Sequence record: NC_029021.1
Origin: Enterobacteria phage JenK1
Strand: one strand, 5' to 3'
Length of the DNA stretch: 60,747 nt
In this document: in pieces, positions 28,117-56,529 of the stretch
Position numbering within the stretch: position 1 is the first letter of the stretch
Layout: each line of letters begins with the position of its first letter
Program-made: the position numbers and the translations under genes
Notes under the pieces: model-generated
Databases searched by the model: none
What the model was told of the DNA's origin: nothing
The model's input: only the letters and a program-made list of their open reading frames with translations

Positions 28117-29105
28117 AGACGAAATCCTACAATTACCCCACGTAGATTTTCACCATAAAAAATAATAGGAGTTGAAAGACCCCTTTCGTCCTTTTCATTG
28201 AAACGCGAGGCATCCCAGTCCGTTGCAAGTCCTTTCAACTGCATAATAAGATCTATATTATACACGCCAATTGACTTGGATTCACGGAACATTGCACTAG
28301 CACCATCCAACTCGTTGTAATGTGTGCGTACAACACCGTTTTCCATGTAAATACGCCCATCCCGCTCACAGAACGGTTTTATCTTTTCTAGGCAATTAAA
28401 AAGCTCAGTATCAAGCGTATAAACGTCGGACCCCTTTTCTGTGCGCTCAATTATCTTATCAATGTTAGGCCACTTTAATTCCAGCAATTGTGTACGCAAC
28501 CAGCAACCGTCTTCGTAGTGAAATGTCATACTGGTATCCGTACATTGAATTCTTACTGGTGGCTTTTTAATACGCAATAATTCTTTGATGGCCATACGTG
28601 GCACAACACAATCTACAGGGAATACAGCACCGAACCAATATTGTATAATACTAGCGTTGTTGGTCGCGTACATGCTGCCCTGTTTTACCAGCACGCCGCA
28701 AGACCACGGGCGGGAAGCATCGTCGCTTATAAATGGCGTTACGCGGCTTAAACCGTTGAGAAAAAGCTGACCGTCTATTTCGTGAATTGTTCCTTCTGGC
28801 TCTACGTGTGCAGTTGGTTTTTGAAGAGTATCCACACTAACCTTAAAGCCACCAGACTTAATGCTCAACTTACCGTTCGCCAACATTGTCATCTGTACAG
28901 CTTCATCACATGCTGCAATAGCTTTCAACATTGGTTCAGCTTTAGGTGTGCAGTCAATATTCAGCGGCACTGGACTACACAATGAAATAGTTCCGTTGAA
29001 CCCGCGCACAGTACCATCAACAATACGGAAGTGAGTTAAACCTTCCTGAAGTTCTTTCTTAGCTACAGAACCCTGAACAAACTTTAAAGCATCAAGTAAA
29101 TCCAT
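28113..29105 (-). CDS. hypothetical protein between DpdA and DNA polymerase
   Basis: 330-aa ORF, translationally coupled to polymerase; no motif recognised. Confidence 0.5.
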   Translation of the reverse strand: MDLLDALKFVQGSVAKKELQEGLTHFRIVDGTVRGFNGTISLCSPVPLNIDCTPKAEPMLKAIAACDEAVQMTMLANGKLSIKSGGFKVSVDTLQKPTAHVEPEGTIHEIDGQLFLNGLSRVTPFISDDASRPWSCGVLVKQGSMYATNNASIIQYWFGAVFPVDCVVPRMAIKELLRIKKPPVRIQCTDTSMTFHYEDGCWLRTQLLELKWPNIDKIIERTEKGSDVYTLDTELFNCLEKIKPFCERDGRIYMENGVVRTHYNELDGASAMFRESKSIGVYNIDLIMQLKGLATDWDASRFNEKDERGLSTPIIFYGENLRGVIVGFRL

Positions 29106-43578: not shown

Positions 43579-43605
43579 TTCTAGCTCCTTTTTCTTAATG
43601 AGGGT

Positions 43606-43634
43606 ATATTACCCAACTAAAACGTTGATGTAAA
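43606..43634 (-). promoter_or_regulatory. candidate sigma70 promoter enclosed by inverted repeat
   Basis: Minus strand TTTACA - 17 bp - TAATAT, flanked by 8-bp inverted repeat GAGGGTAT / ATACCCTC. Confidence 0.4.
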
Positions 43635-43649
43635 TACCCTCGGAGCTTA

Positions 43650-49857: not shown

Positions 49858-49931
49858 GTTATTCTCCTACGATCCATTAGGACACACCTAGTATATACTG
49901 ATGGATCGGCAGGGGGCTAACCCCCTGCAAA

Positions 49932-52442: not shown

Positions 52443-52505
52443 AACCTCACCCTTGATGATAATAAATCGATTAATTTTGAAATTCAGTTGCCAAGTTTTA
52501 ATTTA

Positions 52506-52576
52506 TGCGAAGTTTTTGCTATTTGCAACTGTGATATTTTGCGGTGTTTGTATATGCAAAGTTTTTGCTTTTGCAA
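52506..52576. promoter_or_regulatory. two operator-like palindromic repeats upstream of leftward operon
   Basis: tgcgaagtttttgctatttgcaa (52506-52528) and tgcaaagtttttgcttttgcaa (52555-52576); each carries TGCAAA/TTTGCA inverted half-sites around palindromic TTGCAA. Confidence 0.4.
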
Positions 52577-52605
52577 AAATTACAACAGTCTGAAGGTGAG
52601 AAATT

Positions 52606-52651
52606 GTACATTTATAAAGATCGGTGAAAAAATGCACAATTTATAAAGACC
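52606..52651. repeat. direct repeats of TTTATAAAGA motif
   Basis: tttataaaga at 52611-52620 and 52640-52649; inverted copy tctttataaa at 52789-52798. Confidence 0.5.
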
Positions 52652-53039
52652 CCGTAATACATAAAACGGCGAAGCGAAGTGTATGAAAAATAATGGAAAA
52701 TTTTGAGGATTGGGAGGTTTGTAGTGATTTATATTATTTATAAAGGGGTCTCGTGGGGGTCGTCAGTAGACAACTCAAAAACAAAAAATCTTTATAAAAT
52801 TTATATAAATACACACATATACACATTTTTACCTTATTTTTCATGCACTTACCTCCTTTCATTTCGTATATTAAGCGACAATATACGAGCAATATAAGAA
52901 ATATTTGTTGCGCAACGACTGTGTGTTTTCTAACCAATCGAAAGATTGCTTTATATACGTCCGCGCGTCTAACACAAAAGAAAAGTAGATTGCAAGCGAT
53001 TTTTGCTGAGGTAACTCTCGAAGTGAAAGCGATTTGCGA

Positions 53040-53420
53040 GTTTGAAATTTTGTAGCCCGAAAACGATTCTATTTTATGGTATAAATGTCGGATTTTTCGG
53101 TGAAAGGTGGCTTTTCGGTGAGGTTGGGTGGCTGGAATCGGGGTAGCGGGTAGACCATAAAGCGAAAATAGCCGCGAAAACGGGGCACGCAGCGCGATTA
53201 ACTGGTTGGATCGGTGTAAGGGTGGCGGTGAGGGGCGAAAATGCCGCAAAATCGCGTACAGGGAAGCAGGGAGTGGATCACTGTAAGGGCGTGTAAGGCG
53301 ACTGAATTGGAGTCAATGGTAATGTACGGAAGAGGGATTCAGGTTCTTAGAGCGCGAATGGTGGAGTTATGGGTGAGGAATATGTGGTCAGCAGGGTAAC
53401 GCGGGAGGTTATGCAGGTAC
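53040..53420. repeat. purine-rich non-coding tract with tandem and dispersed short repeats
   Basis: ttttcggtga(a/g)(a/g)gtgg twice (53094-53131), gcgaaaat(a)gccgc(g)aaaa twice (53162-53183, 53234-53255), recurring GGTGAGG / GTAAGG motifs; no convincing ORF. Confidence 0.5.
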
Positions 53421-53457
53421 AAAAACGAAAGCGCCCCGTTGGACTTCAACAGGGCGC
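53421..53457 (-). terminator. intrinsic terminator ending leftward early operon
   Basis: Minus strand stem GCGCCC / GGGCGC with 15-nt loop, then TTTCGTTTTT. Confidence 0.5.
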
Positions 53458-53480
53458 GGATTATATAATGCAGTTAGAAG

Positions 53481-53729
53481 TTATTTACAAGTTAATAGTA
53501 CCGCCCAGGTATTATCTGGAAGCGTACCAACTCCAAGTATTTTAAGTTGAAGCGACTTGTTCTGCATGTTGTAATTGTCCAGTAACTCCTGGGCCGCGGC
53601 AGCGGCGTTCGCTTCACCGTTCAGGTTGTAGTCGTTTGCAGTTATTGCGCACATACCGAGGCCAACCGCTTTGAAGCGCATACCTTTGGATTGAGTCGGT
53701 GCTAGTGCTTTGACATGGATAGCGTTCAT
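53481..53729 (-). CDS. hypothetical small protein, paralog family B (copy 2)
   Basis: 82 aa; alignable with 54260-54505 product (shared AAA.EL...G.LPD pattern). Confidence 0.55.
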   Translation of the reverse strand: MNAIHVKALAPTQSKGMRFKAVGLGMCAITANDYNLNGEANAAAAAQELLDNYNMQNKSLQLKILGVGTLPDNTWAVLLTCK

Positions 53730-53758
53730 ATTATTTATCTCCGTTACAATTTGAAAGG

Positions 53759-54016
53759 TTAGCAGCTTTTTAACAGGTTAATGAAGCCCACCAGCGTGGA
53801 CGCGGTTGCAACCAGGCGGCCCATAGTATGCAGTTCCGCGTAAACTTTACCGTCGTTGAACACTGTTAAATAAACGTTAAGACCATTGCAACGGACGCGA
53901 TATTTGCGCGAGTTATTATTGAAAGTTTCTAATTCCGCAGTGATAGTCGCAAGATTAGCTATACGCTTGCCGATAATGCGGCGAGTGATAGTGGACTGGT
54001 TTAATACTGTAGACAT
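53759..54016 (-). CDS. hypothetical small protein, paralog family A (copy 2)
   Basis: 85 aa; N-terminus STITRRIIGKRI matches SMITKRIIGKRL of 55331-55636 product; AGGA RBS. Confidence 0.55.
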   Translation of the reverse strand: MSTVLNQSTITRRIIGKRIANLATITAELETFNNNSRKYRVRCNGLNVYLTVFNDGKVYAELHTMGRLVATASTLVGFINLLKSC

Positions 54017-54053
54017 AATCTTTTCCTCTGTTAACTATGCGAAGTGCATATTA

Positions 54054-54076
54054 TTGCCCACTGTTACTATGGGCAA
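54054..54076 (-). promoter_or_regulatory. palindromic element overlapping candidate promoter (copy 1)
   Basis: ttgcccactgttactatgggcaa; on minus strand reads TTGCCC - 17 bp - TAATAT upstream of 53759-54016 gene. Confidence 0.4.
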
Positions 54077-54084
54077 TGTATATG

Positions 54085-54249
54085 TCACTCAGCGGACACA
54101 TATTCTAACGCTTCTGATAGTGTAGCGAAGTGACCATCACTCACCAGATTAATAGCGTACTCAAGTTGATCCCGGGTCAGGTTGCGAAACTTGTTACGGA
54201 TGTGATAGCAACGACCGCGATAAATAACCTGGAAATAATTGCGTTCCAT
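54085..54249 (-). CDS. hypothetical small protein
   Basis: 54 aa from internal ATG 54249 with GGGGA RBS (longer track ORF overlaps upstream gene). Confidence 0.35.
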   Translation of the reverse strand: MERNYFQVIYRGRCYHIRNKFRNLTRDQLEYAINLVSDGHFATLSEALEYVSAE

Positions 54250-54259
54250 AATTATCCCC

Positions 54260-54505
54260 TTATGCAACGATGAACGCGTAACCGCTTTGATCCGGGAGCT
54301 CACCACCAGCAACAATCTCAAACTCAACACCCGCTTTATCGTTGAACTTTTTGATAAGCTCTTCCGCTGCGGCGCGGTGGTTGCCGTAAACACCCAAATC
54401 GTCACGCCATGTGATAGTCAAGGAGCCGTTCCAGCCTGTTGCTTTTACGCGCGGGTCACGGGTGGCAGTCGGGTTGATGAATTTCGTGATGATAGCTTGA
54501 GCCAT
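54260..54505 (-). CDS. hypothetical small protein, paralog family B (copy 1)
   Basis: 81 aa; paralog of 53481-53729 product. Confidence 0.55.
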   Translation of the reverse strand: MAQAIITKFINPTATRDPRVKATGWNGSLTITWRDDLGVYGNHRAAAEELIKKFNDKAGVEFEIVAGGELPDQSGYAFIVA

Positions 54506-54510
54506 GATAA

Positions 54511-54729
54511 TTACTCCGGTAAAATTACAGTGACGTTAATATTTGCAATGCGAGCGCACTCGCGGAAACCTTTTACATAAGCATCCATTTCGTCATAGGA
54601 TGCGAATGTCACGTCCGGGACTGGTCCGTTGTTAATATTCACGCAATATTCGTGTTCGTCCAGGTCAACCCAGCAGTATAGAACTATAGTTTCCATATTA
54701 TTTACCCTCCGTATAGTAAAGACCCGCAA
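54511..54729 (-). CDS. hypothetical small protein
   Basis: 72-aa ORF (possibly starting at internal METIVLYC). Confidence 0.45.
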   Translation of the reverse strand: MRVFTIRRVNNMETIVLYCWVDLDEHEYCVNINNGPVPDVTFASYDEMDAYVKGFRECARIANINVTVILPE

Positions 54730-54774
54730 CTATTGGAGCTCCGAACACCAAGAAAGCTAATAAGTAGAACATAA

Positions 54775-55269
54775 TTAGTTACCCCCTTTATTATTGAGCC
54801 CGTTGAATTTACGCCATGCGTAGAATTCAATCGTTGCATTATTAATATTCCAACCATTAGCTTTCGCAAGGTCACGGACGTTACCAATAGTTGGCACACT
54901 ATCAGGTAACATATTATCCAGGGCATTCCAAACGTCTGCGCATTTACCTTTAATTGGGCGGCGGACCCCGTTGCGCGTTTCGCTGCGCGTTTTGCTCTTG
55001 GCGGGAGCGACCGGAGCTTGTTGTGTGGTCACTTCCACGACAGTCGCTTTATCAGCTTCAACCAGATCGTTAGCTGCCTTGTTAACCGCGCTTTCGCTGT
55101 ACCAGTAGCGGCCACCGTCTTCTTGCGGTTCCTGGTGAATAAAGCTATTAGCTGTCGCAGTGTCCACATCCAGAACCTTTTTTAAGGCACGGCGAGCGTT
55201 AGACATATTGGTGAAGAAGCGAGCATCTTTTGCTACGCGAGTGATAGTAACCATTGTGAATATCTCCAT
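54775..55269 (-). CDS. hypothetical protein
   Basis: 164 aa; N-terminal TITRVAKDA loosely resembles paralog family A; preceded by second copy of the palindromic element. Confidence 0.5.
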   Translation of the reverse strand: MEIFTMVTITRVAKDARFFTNMSNARRALKKVLDVDTATANSFIHQEPQEDGGRYWYSESAVNKAANDLVEADKATVVEVTTQQAPVAPAKSKTRSETRNGVRRPIKGKCADVWNALDNMLPDSVPTIGNVRDLAKANGWNINNATIEFYAWRKFNGLNNKGGN

Positions 55270-55296
55270 GTTGTTCTAGCGGATTGCTAGTGGGAG

Positions 55297-55317
55297 CCCA
55301 CTGTAACAATGGGCAAC
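55297..55317 (-). promoter_or_regulatory. palindromic element (copy 2)
   Basis: gcccactgtaacaatgggcaa; 19 of 21 nt identical to copy at 54056-54076. Confidence 0.4.
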
Positions 55318-55330
55318 CATTAGCACGCTA

Positions 55331-55636
55331 TTATTGTTGAATAGCTTTATCTATCATTGCGATGAAGCAGAACACAGACCAAAGGCTATTCGCTTGGCAT
55401 ACTGCGCGGCCGTACATTACAGCGTGAGAGCTAACAGTACCGTCCTCGTTAATGCGAATATATAACGGGGTGCTGGAATACTTTTCGTTGCCCGGGAGCA
55501 TTACTAAATACTCGTCGAAACCCCAATCCCCGTCGACTTTTTCCGCAGTAAGGCCCAGCTGATACAGGCGCTTGCCGATAATACGTTTGGTGATCATGGA
55601 CTGGGACATAGAACGCGGTAAGTAGATAATGGACAT
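55331..55636 (-). CDS. hypothetical small protein, paralog family A (copy 1)
   Basis: 101 aa; AAGGGAG RBS; paralog of 53759-54016 product. Confidence 0.55.
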   Translation of the reverse strand: MSIIYLPRSMSQSMITKRIIGKRLYQLGLTAEKVDGDWGFDEYLVMLPGNEKYSSTPLYIRINEDGTVSSHAVMYGRAVCQANSLWSVFCFIAMIDKAIQQ

Positions 55637-55821
55637 AATGCAATCTCCCTTCGGGTGAAGCGGGCGCGGAACCCGTGTCCCGCTTTAAAACCCCCTTTAC
55701 CCCACGCGTTTATAGTATGACAACAGGGTATCAGATGCAACTATTATCTGCATTATTTTAGAACTTTTTTAGTTGTGTTTCATAATAATAACATCCGGGA
55801 CTATACGGTAGATGGTGTGCC

Positions 55822-55890
55822 GGAAATACCAGGTAGCGCGAGTGTGCTGAAAATACCAGGTAACAGCACGCGCAGGAAATACCAGGTAGC
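55822..55890. repeat. three iteron-like direct repeats in divergent intergenic region
   Basis: ggaaataccaggtagc (55822-55837), gaaaataccaggtaac (55849-55864), ggaaataccaggtagc (55875-55890); spacing 27 and 26 bp; each contains CCAGG. Confidence 0.55.
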
Positions 55891-56241
55891 ACATACATAG
55901 ACAGCACATAGTGGGCAGGTGGATAGTAACAGATGTAATTATACTGGACGGTATAGTATAGTCATGTAATAGATAGCACACTAATCAAATAAAAAATAAT
56001 AACGCGTGTAACAATAAACAACGTTATAGTAGAGCGCATGACAGTCACATCACGTAACAATCACCTCACTGACGATCACGGGACGTTATAGTAACGCCGC
56101 GGGGCGGCTCTTAGATCTCTGCCAAGGATTCATCGTTTGTAGATTGTCTCGTCACTAGACACTTTATATCCTCACCTCACCTGCCCTATATTGTTCGTAT
56201 AAAGTTAATTCCGTATGTAAATACTCGAGAGGAGATCTGTT

Positions 56242-56529
56242 ATGTTCGTTCTGGCTTTCAGTAGTGCAATATGGCTAGGTATCAACTGGATCCTTGCAAT
56301 TATATTGGGTCTTGTGATTTGGTATGTGCCGTTTATGCGTTACGCTGTTATCATTTCGCTTGTATATTTAGTTGTTAAACATTTCTTCGTATGGTGTGTA
56401 TGCAACCCACAAGCTGCAAACATCAAACGTAACAAAGCGAACTTCTTTAGTGTACTTATTTTAGGTTCACTGATTGTGTACGCATGGTTGCTCGGTGCGC
56501 AGAACTTAGGTTGGTTCACGTTACCTTAA
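56242..56529 (+). CDS. small membrane protein
   Basis: 95 aa with two or three hydrophobic helices. Confidence 0.5.
   Translation: MFVLAFSSAIWLGINWILAIILGLVIWYVPFMRYAVIISLVYLVVKHFFVWCVCNPQAANIKRNKANFFSVLILGSLIVYAWLLGAQNLGWFTLP

Follow-up and report, generated by a model that had tools for sequence, protein, structure and literature searches.

Results

The stretch of DNA analysed here (the window) is the complete record of Enterobacteria phage JenK1 (NC_029021.1; 60,747 nucleotides), a unit-length genome of which the ends are not repeated, and the subject of this report is a leftward operon at positions 53431-55965, in which two hairpins, here called HP1 and HP2, are located between small genes, some of which belong to two duplicated families, A and B. 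All genes of the operon are on the minus strand, and the gene starts used are those annotated in related phages. In the direction of transcription the order is promoter, a leader hairpin (HP0), A1, HP2, gp159, an open reading frame (ORF) of 24 amino acids, gp61, B1, gp54, HP1, A2, B2 and terminator, and the region is best explained as a single transcription unit, read from one leftward promoter into a polycistronic mRNA. HP2 (55277-55330) starts right after the stop codon of A1 (55331-55636, 101 amino acids) and ends 8-10 nucleotides before the ribosome-binding site of gp159. HP1 (54039-54093) has the stop codon of gp54 inside its 5' arm and precedes A2 (53759-54016, 85 amino acids), which is followed by B2 (53481-53729, 82 amino acids); the other B gene, B1 (54260-54505, 81 amino acids), lies upstream of gp54. 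Both hairpins thus occupy same-strand intergenic gaps between the promoter-like site and the single terminator, and the downstream ribosome-binding sites are free, 8-10 nucleotides past each stem.

By sequence identity, JenK1 is a Nonagvirus of the phage 9g type. The region under study is 90-95% identical to the Nonagvirus genomes (Queuovirinae) of 9g, JenP1, JenP2, BRET, HdSG1, HdK1, SE1, ChristophMerian and FritzHoffmann, of which the last two are phages of the BASEL collection, and all genes under the match are annotated as hypothetical.

The core of each hairpin is a 21-bp palindromic element, GCCCACTGTWACWATGGGCAA, found at 54056-54076 (HP1) and at 55296-55316 (HP2), with 19 of the 21 positions identical in the two copies. 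The window contains exactly these two copies, where none are expected in shuffled sequences. A first-pass annotation of the locus had reported the same two copies with the same identity, but had put the second at 55297-55317, one base off. It had also described the element as lying upstream of two genes, which holds for gp159 and A2, but not for A1, as the element lies downstream of that gene; in 9g, SP8, SE1 and JenP1 the element is located upstream of B2. Finally, it had pointed to a promoter-like arrangement, TTGCCC-17-TAATAT, overlapping the first copy. These hexamers are present on the minus strand of HP1 (TTGCCC at 54076-54071 and TAATAT at 54053-54048), but they match the consensus in 8 of 12 positions and are not listed by a promoter scan, and HP2 has no -10 hexamer.

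In order to examine the structure around the palindromes, 71 nucleotides around each copy were folded. HP1 reaches an RNA minimum free energy of -25.0 kcal/mol (z = -4.0) and HP2 one of -27.2 kcal/mol (z = -5.1), each with 21 pairs, and both are within the approximately 20 most stable local folds of the 60.7 kb. The chimeric hairpin of FritzHoffmann has 25 pairs, and across the hairpins z ranges from -4 to -6. When the shared 19-nucleotide core was kept fixed and the flanks alone were shuffled, the observed energy was reached in 7 of 3000 trials for HP1 (p ~0.002) and in none of 3000 for HP2; as the flanks of the two hairpins are unrelated in sequence, these are two independent signals for extended pairing. 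What is conserved as a 21-bp palindrome is in each case the tip of a longer hairpin; the two hairpins are homologous, with a length of about 55 nucleotides and an imperfect stem of about 21 bp each. The lower stems, which differ in sequence between HP1 and HP2 and are paired in both, extend 10-12 bp beyond the promoter core, and the internal loops are small (2x1 and 2x2). Neither hairpin has a U-tract and neither is called as a terminator, whereas the other hairpins between genes of this genome are for the most part classical terminators. Long hairpins without U-tract located directly before ribosome-binding sites are also observed at 49858-49931 and 43579-43649, on the minus strand of the leftward block, so non-terminator intercistronic hairpins are not unique to this operon.

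A search of Rfam gave no match, neither for the whole window at gathering scores nor for 52700-56250 at E <= 5. Matches to the pattern of the hairpin tip in viral and genome collections were judged to be chance, as they fall in coding regions of unrelated and mostly GC-rich contigs; in L132, a match to the element in 20 of 21 positions falls within a tail gene.

All 12 relatives in GenBank, and several metagenomic contigs as well, carry both hairpins at the corresponding places, which bears out the expectation of the first-pass annotation that the element is conserved, and the hairpins are kept even where the gene downstream is a different one. The arms of the element are invariant in all relatives, with variation in the central bases, and the loop sequence is free to vary (3-9 nucleotides; three substitutions in contig L078). 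Among the 11 distinct variants of HP2, 12 of the 13 sites that vary lie in unpaired positions of the loop, an internal loop or a flank, and the remaining one changes a C-G into a U-G pair, by which the pairing is kept. Among the nine distinct variants of HP1, 96% of the cells are paired and four of the 21 pairs change on both sides; the pair 18-42 is found as A-U, G-C and U-A. The covariation score of HP1 (0.126, against 0.057 in shuffles) was exceeded in none of 500 shuffles, and in controls with a slid register the pairing collapses to 30-46%.

Some of the substitutions concern the proposed -10 hexamer, as TAATAT has become CAATAT or AAATAT in the contigs L053 and L081 and in the FritzHoffmann chimera, and each time the opposite arm of the hairpin compensates for the change. 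The compensating change lies upstream of the -35 hexamer and has no meaning for a promoter. Since these changes of the first T are always compensated on the other arm, the pairing rather than the hexamer appears to be under selection, and the substitution pattern points to selection having preserved pairing rather than a promoter or operator sequence. With respect to the strand, the core contains an invariant U-G wobble that can form on the transcribed strand only, and both cores are more stable there (-8.0 and -9.3 kcal/mol) than on the other (-5.8 and -6.9 kcal/mol). Judged by the G-U pairs, the strand preference of HP1 is sense and that of HP2 is ambiguous.

The paralogy proposed by the first-pass annotation is confirmed for both families. 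A1 and A2 are 34% identical over 77 amino acids (BLASTP, E = 3e-9), including the motif ITK/RRIIGKR, and both fall full-length in PHROG 13865 (E of 8e-60 and 1e-36), while B1 and B2 are 36% identical over 73 amino acids (E = 3e-7) and both fall full-length in PHROG 3199 (E of 9e-30 and 5e-25). By these pairwise and profile alignments, A1 and A2, and likewise B1 and B2, are diverged paralogs of two phage-only families, neither of which has a functional annotation in PHROGs. No operon protein has a meaningful match in Pfam, NCBIfam or PADLOC, and domain scans found no helix-turn-helix or other DNA-binding domain in any of them.

The A protein is modelled with an alpha-beta5-alpha fold, in which the N-terminal motif is predicted to lie within a folded helix, and A2 is basic (net charge ~+7). 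A search with the A profile against 1.84 billion representatives gave nine matches at E <= 0.001. Of these, four are long repeat proteins with YDG and SpaA domains, judged spurious, and the others are representatives of the A1 and A2 types and three small, more distant relatives. As far as this profile search reaches, the A family is confined to Nonagvirus-like phages. Members of the B family occur in about 160 records of phages that infect Escherichia, Salmonella, Pseudomonas, Klebsiella and other hosts, and they are often located close to a genome end. Its model (pLDDT 89.6) has a beta3-alpha-beta2 topology with no convincing relative among solved structures, and a sequence search of the PDB with the B profile was empty. 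Chi-like phages carry a tandem B-B fusion of 179 amino acids (hhalign probability 91%), such as at 2998-3537 of L083, Salmonella phage FSL SP-088 (Chivirus), and it is due to such fusions that the profile of PHROG 3199 has 181 positions. As these fusions exist, B probably works as a dimer, and B1 and B2 could form homo- or heterodimers. Anecdotally, a hairpin is located ahead of the B homolog in the unrelated phages phiKT and Roomu-2, and not in one Chi-like phage.

The full gene arrangement is common to most relatives, and the locus comparison shows the copy-number variation among related phages that the first-pass annotation had suggested looking for. In 9g, SP8, SE1 and JenP1, A2 is missing and HP1 directly precedes a diverged B2. 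In FritzHoffmann other genes replace A1, and HP2 is a chimera with flanks of the HP1 type, while ChristophMerian and the contig CYGL are without B1 and gp54, and CYGL also without gp61. In the more distant contigs L063, L081 and L053 a gp159 homolog comes first, followed by one hairpin and then by a single A-B pair or by B alone; in L053 the hairpin is present without any A gene within 12.6 kb. The element is kept in contigs in which the neighbouring proteins are just 36-65% identical, and in nearly all genomes an A gene directly adjoins a hairpin.

These comparisons also locate the boundary of the conserved unit. Homology starts at the base of HP1, with the sequence (C)GCTGAGTGACAT, whatever the upstream neighbour is (gp54, gp61, gp159, a 175-amino-acid protein or a tiny ORF), and this upstream breakpoint at the hairpin base is observed in ChristophMerian, CYGL, L063, L081 and L053, that is, in at least five contexts. 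Because homology begins at the same place across differing neighbours, HP1-A-B seems to behave as a cassette and the hairpins as its joints. Locus comparison establishes HP1-A-B (here HP1-A2-B2) as the conserved unit, with A1 and B1 as dispersed extra copies that are gained and lost among close relatives. The duplicated two-gene module of the first-pass annotation does not survive this, as A2 and B2 are direct neighbours, but HP2, gp159, the 24-amino-acid ORF and gp61 lie between A1 and B1, and the more distant contigs have one A-B pair only.

Two of the phages with a differing gene content have been characterised with respect to host defences, Bas19 (ChristophMerian), which is without B1 and gp54, and Bas20 (FritzHoffmann), which is without A1. 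Bas19 is the only Nonagvirus with some sensitivity to EcoKI (PMC8594841, PMC11077055), and it is the only Queuovirinae phage not blocked by AbiA, while Bas20 is the only one blocked by AbiK (PMC8594841, PMC11077055). This is a correlation between gene content and phenotype in two phages that differ elsewhere too.

The operon has a particular location in the genome. The record of HdSG1 has an exact repeat of 3363 bp at both ends, which aligns to 52737-56110 of the window with about 94% identity, and the physical genome end given in the 9g paper, record position 28243, maps to about 56110. By homology with the HdSG1 repeat and the 9g end, 52737-56110 corresponds to the direct terminal repeat (DTR) of Nonagvirus virion DNA and is made up of some 700 bp without genes on the left, the operon, and a divergent promoter region, with the whole minus-strand operon (53431-55965) inside it. 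This alignment places the operon within the terminal-repeat equivalent, so it would be present at both ends of the virion DNA.

About 1 kb to the left of the operon (52450-53430) is without a credible ORF, and the left part of it is AT-rich and packed with short direct and inverted repeats; the left DTR boundary (52737) coincides with a ATTTATAAAG repeat. The region is reminiscent of the non-coding injection-stop region in the terminal repeat of T5. At the other side, the motif ACG(G/T)TATAGTA occurs three times within 55948-56093 (at 55948, 56021 and 56083), and as the last copy is located about 20 nucleotides from the inferred end (~56110), it is possible that this candidate motif serves the terminase or end recognition.

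With respect to the remaining features, the candidate sigma-70 promoter of the operon (55938-55965, minus strand; ATGACT-16-TATAAT) is the best site of the promoter scan (10 of 12 positions) and coincides with a BPROM promoter annotated in phage 9g, which is likewise a prediction. Between this and A1 lies HP0 (55645-55708, minus strand), a structured, GC-rich 5' leader hairpin found by folding just upstream of A1, which is the second most stable 64-nucleotide fold in the whole window and is kept in JenP1. As HP0 precedes a different first gene in FritzHoffmann, it belongs to the operon rather than to A1. A rightward promoter is predicted at 55757-55786, and with the leftward one (55965-55938) it would give 5' untranslated regions that overlap in antisense over about 150 nucleotides. 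Inside this overlap, between the divergent promoter-like sites, three direct repeats of about 21 nucleotides, GTGTGC(C/T)G(G/A)AAATACCAGGTA, are found at 55815-55888 with a spacing of 26-27 nucleotides, and these look like iterons or operators.

Further downstream, gp159 (54775-55254; PHROG 17772), whose homolog opens the operon in more distant relatives, has no match in Pfam, NCBIfam or the PDB, while its C-terminal ~70 residues also match PHROG 21588, 22313, 18634 and 11298, a pattern of profile matches that indicates a C-terminal domain common to various phages. Reading of the sequence between gp159 and gp61 gives a hydrophobic ORF of 24 amino acids, MFYLLAFLVFGAPIVAGLYYTEGK (54698-54772), which is annotated only in the BASEL phages (bas20_0075 and bas19_0075) and is kept in the distant contig L079. 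The products of gp61 (54511-54696; PHROG 5461) and gp54 (54085-54249; PHROG 18706) match families of unknown function. The operon is closed by an intrinsic terminator (53431-53457, minus strand), found by the terminator scan, with an 11-bp stem of which eight pairs are GC, followed by TTTCGTTTTT; it is also annotated in HdSG1, HdK1 and SP8.

Discussion

In this study I show that two palindromes in the terminal-repeat operon of JenK1 are the tips of longer, conserved hairpins. I propose, at a probability of roughly 0.5, a post-transcriptional role for HP1 and HP2, as intercistronic hairpins of the mRNA that act on its processing or stability. In the most likely form of this proposal they would be RNase III-type cleavage sites in the mRNA; a function as 3'-exonuclease barriers is an equally ordinary variant. 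Through the hairpins the transcript would be divided into parts that differ in stability and in translation, with the downstream ribosome-binding sites staying free. E. coli RNase III needs roughly two helical turns, a length which is matched by the HP stems of about 21-25 bp. The RNase III-type interpretation is suggested by the likeness to the T7 sites R0.3, R0.5, R1, R1.1 and R1.3, which are located between the cistrons of a polycistronic mRNA transcribed by the host RNA polymerase, and which form irregular hairpins that are about two turns long, have small internal loops and no U-tract, and leave the downstream ribosome-binding site outside the stem; length, irregular stems, missing U-tract, intercistronic position and free ribosome-binding site are all matched here. 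There are differences as well, as HP1 and HP2 have no sequence similarity to the T7 sites and no Rfam match, their cleavage is putative, their internal loops are smaller (2x1 and 2x2), their tips, unlike those of the T7 sites, are nearly identical to each other, and they occur in a siphovirus with a long terminal repeat. As the hairpins are near-identical repeats at gene borders, they may also serve as recombination joints for cassette swaps.

Several observations weigh against this proposal. The antisense strands fold about as stably as the sense strands (-24.4 and -29.3 kcal/mol), and in the lower stem of HP2 one mismatch would become a G-U pair on the antisense strand. The evidence for pairing would fit a dyad or cruciform in DNA as well as a hairpin in RNA, and it is drawn from a low diversity, as the distinct variants number 9 and 7-11, most of them above 90% identity, and the covariation consists of only four pairs. 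The similarity of the core between both copies is far above what pairing needs, and this extra conservation could reflect sequence-specific protein recognition or simply a recent common origin. L079 carries A-B without any hairpin. Searches of Pfam, PHROGs, NCBIfam, PADLOC and the PDB found nothing that links A or B to a known function, and a literature search found no expression or cleavage data for any Nonagvirus.

Alternatively, HP1 could be an internal sigma-70 promoter with a stem-loop between or over its hexamers, as in the promoter-early stem-loops (PeSLs) of T4-type phages, that would attenuate transcription from upstream, restart it for A2-B2 and provide homology for shuffling, with HP2 as a decayed copy. 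PeSLs are described as stem-loops between or over the -35 and -10 hexamers, with G/C-run stems, in intergenic positions upstream of ORFans and with recombination within the elements (PMC2839356), a description to which HP1 runs parallel. The likeness extends to repeated intergenic elements over -35/-10-like hexamers, located upstream of small ORFans in a variable region, with boundaries of gain, loss and replacement at the hairpins and with chimeric elements such as that of FritzHoffmann (PMC2839356, PMC4122927). The geometry of copy 1 is right, with a 17-nucleotide spacer, a predicted start about 25 nucleotides before the ATG of A2 and a ribosome-binding site in between, and HP1 travels with the A-B cassette, which is followed by a strong terminator. 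However, the promoter part is weak in HP1, with its 8/12 hexamers missing from the promoter scan, and absent in HP2, where a usable -10 is found in the FritzHoffmann chimera and in no other phage; three relatives have lost the first T of the -10, with a compensation that overrides the hexamer and lacks promoter function; the stems are much longer than in PeSLs (~21 bp), reaching 10-12 bp past the promoter core; and there are two copies per genome against about 50 PeSLs in a T4-type genome. I therefore consider a PeSL-like promoter unlikely. A duplex-DNA operator, in which the 19-21-bp dyad is the site of a dimeric phage regulator, possibly of the A family, that represses an internal promoter at HP1 and acts as a roadblock at HP2, would explain why the core is identical in 19 of 21 positions with invariant arms and a variable centre, as in operators with a free spacer, and why an A gene is next to a hairpin in nearly all genomes. 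This co-occurrence is imperfect, though, given the hairpin of L053 without an A gene and the A gene of L079 without a hairpin. The dyad is moreover asymmetric at one invariant position (T/G), where a U-G pair forms only in RNA, the compensatory changes alter bases in both half-sites, the significant self-complementarity of the unrelated flanks would be superfluous in an operator, copy 2 does not overlap a promoter, and no operon protein has a recognisable DNA-binding domain. The shared operator of the first-pass annotation is thus a real, non-random and conserved dyad, but given the longer paired flanks, the -10 in copy 1 only, the compensated changes and the lack of a recognisable DNA-binding domain, I regard a role as operator as quite improbable.

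The hairpins might also be cis-acting, nut- or put-like sites in the RNA, to which A possibly binds and at which RNA polymerase is modified to read through the terminator at 53431-53457 and across the 1-kb spacer into the leftward structural genes. In favour of such sites, the entire leftward half of the genome has just one leftward promoter in the prediction of the 9g study, which makes control of read-through necessary somewhere. The strong terminator that closes the operon fits as well. The GCCCA/UGGGC stem is similar to the GC-rich stem of boxB in lambdoid phages and is counted on the same side. Nevertheless, the loop (3-9 nucleotides, freely variable) does not resemble a GNRA-like pentaloop, the hairpins are far longer than boxB, and no boxA-like sequence is present above chance, as the only nearby match has three mismatches and the window contains 32 such matches where 21 are expected. 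The A proteins also appear to be without an arginine-rich N-terminal peptide of the N type, since their N-terminal motif is modelled within a folded helix, and altogether nut-type sites seem very improbable. That the hairpins are neutral remnants of a single duplication event, with no function of their own, would agree with the similarity that extends past the core, where HP2 and the SP8-type HP1 share GCAATCCGC-TAG, which fits common descent or gene conversion. Against this, almost no substitutions are found at stem positions, whereas loops, bulges and neighbouring coding and intergenic positions vary, changes are compensated, and the hairpins are retained beside proteins of only 36-65% identity, which leaves this possibility with hardly any probability. 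A more elaborate scheme, in which hairpins and A proteins form a dedicated circuit, with A binding the hairpin tip as RNA or DNA, autoregulating the operon and gating read-through into the leftward late genes, and with B dimers as effectors against host or defence, is speculative and would be a long shot.

Blocks of pre-early or host-takeover genes are carried in long terminal repeats in the first-step-transfer (pre-early) region of T5 and in the terminal redundancy of SPO1. As in these blocks, small genes, mostly of unknown function, fill the DTR next to strong promoters, whereas the Nonagvirus repeat is only about 3.4 kb with eight small genes and has no homologs of the takeover genes of T5 or SPO1. 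As the operon is located inside the terminal-repeat equivalent and next to divergent promoters, it may be expressed early, with a role in host takeover, and A and B would then act on the host, in takeover or anti-defence. The first-pass annotation had assigned the locus to this class for a different reason, the duplicated, diverging small genes under a shared operator; the terminal-repeat location fits that assignment and is the one observation that speaks for it.

I found no account of these elements or genes in the papers on 9g, HdSG1 and the BASEL phages. As an intercistronic hairpin or cassette linker is a familiar kind of element, the advance is incremental. Still, Nonagviruses are common coliphages, with members in the BASEL reference collection, and serve in studies of deazaguanine modification of DNA. 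Their DTR holds a single compact operon, in which three conserved structures of RNA type are combined with two families of paralogous ORFans that differ between isolates, and as B is present in about 160 phage genomes of many hosts, a function found for B would transfer widely.

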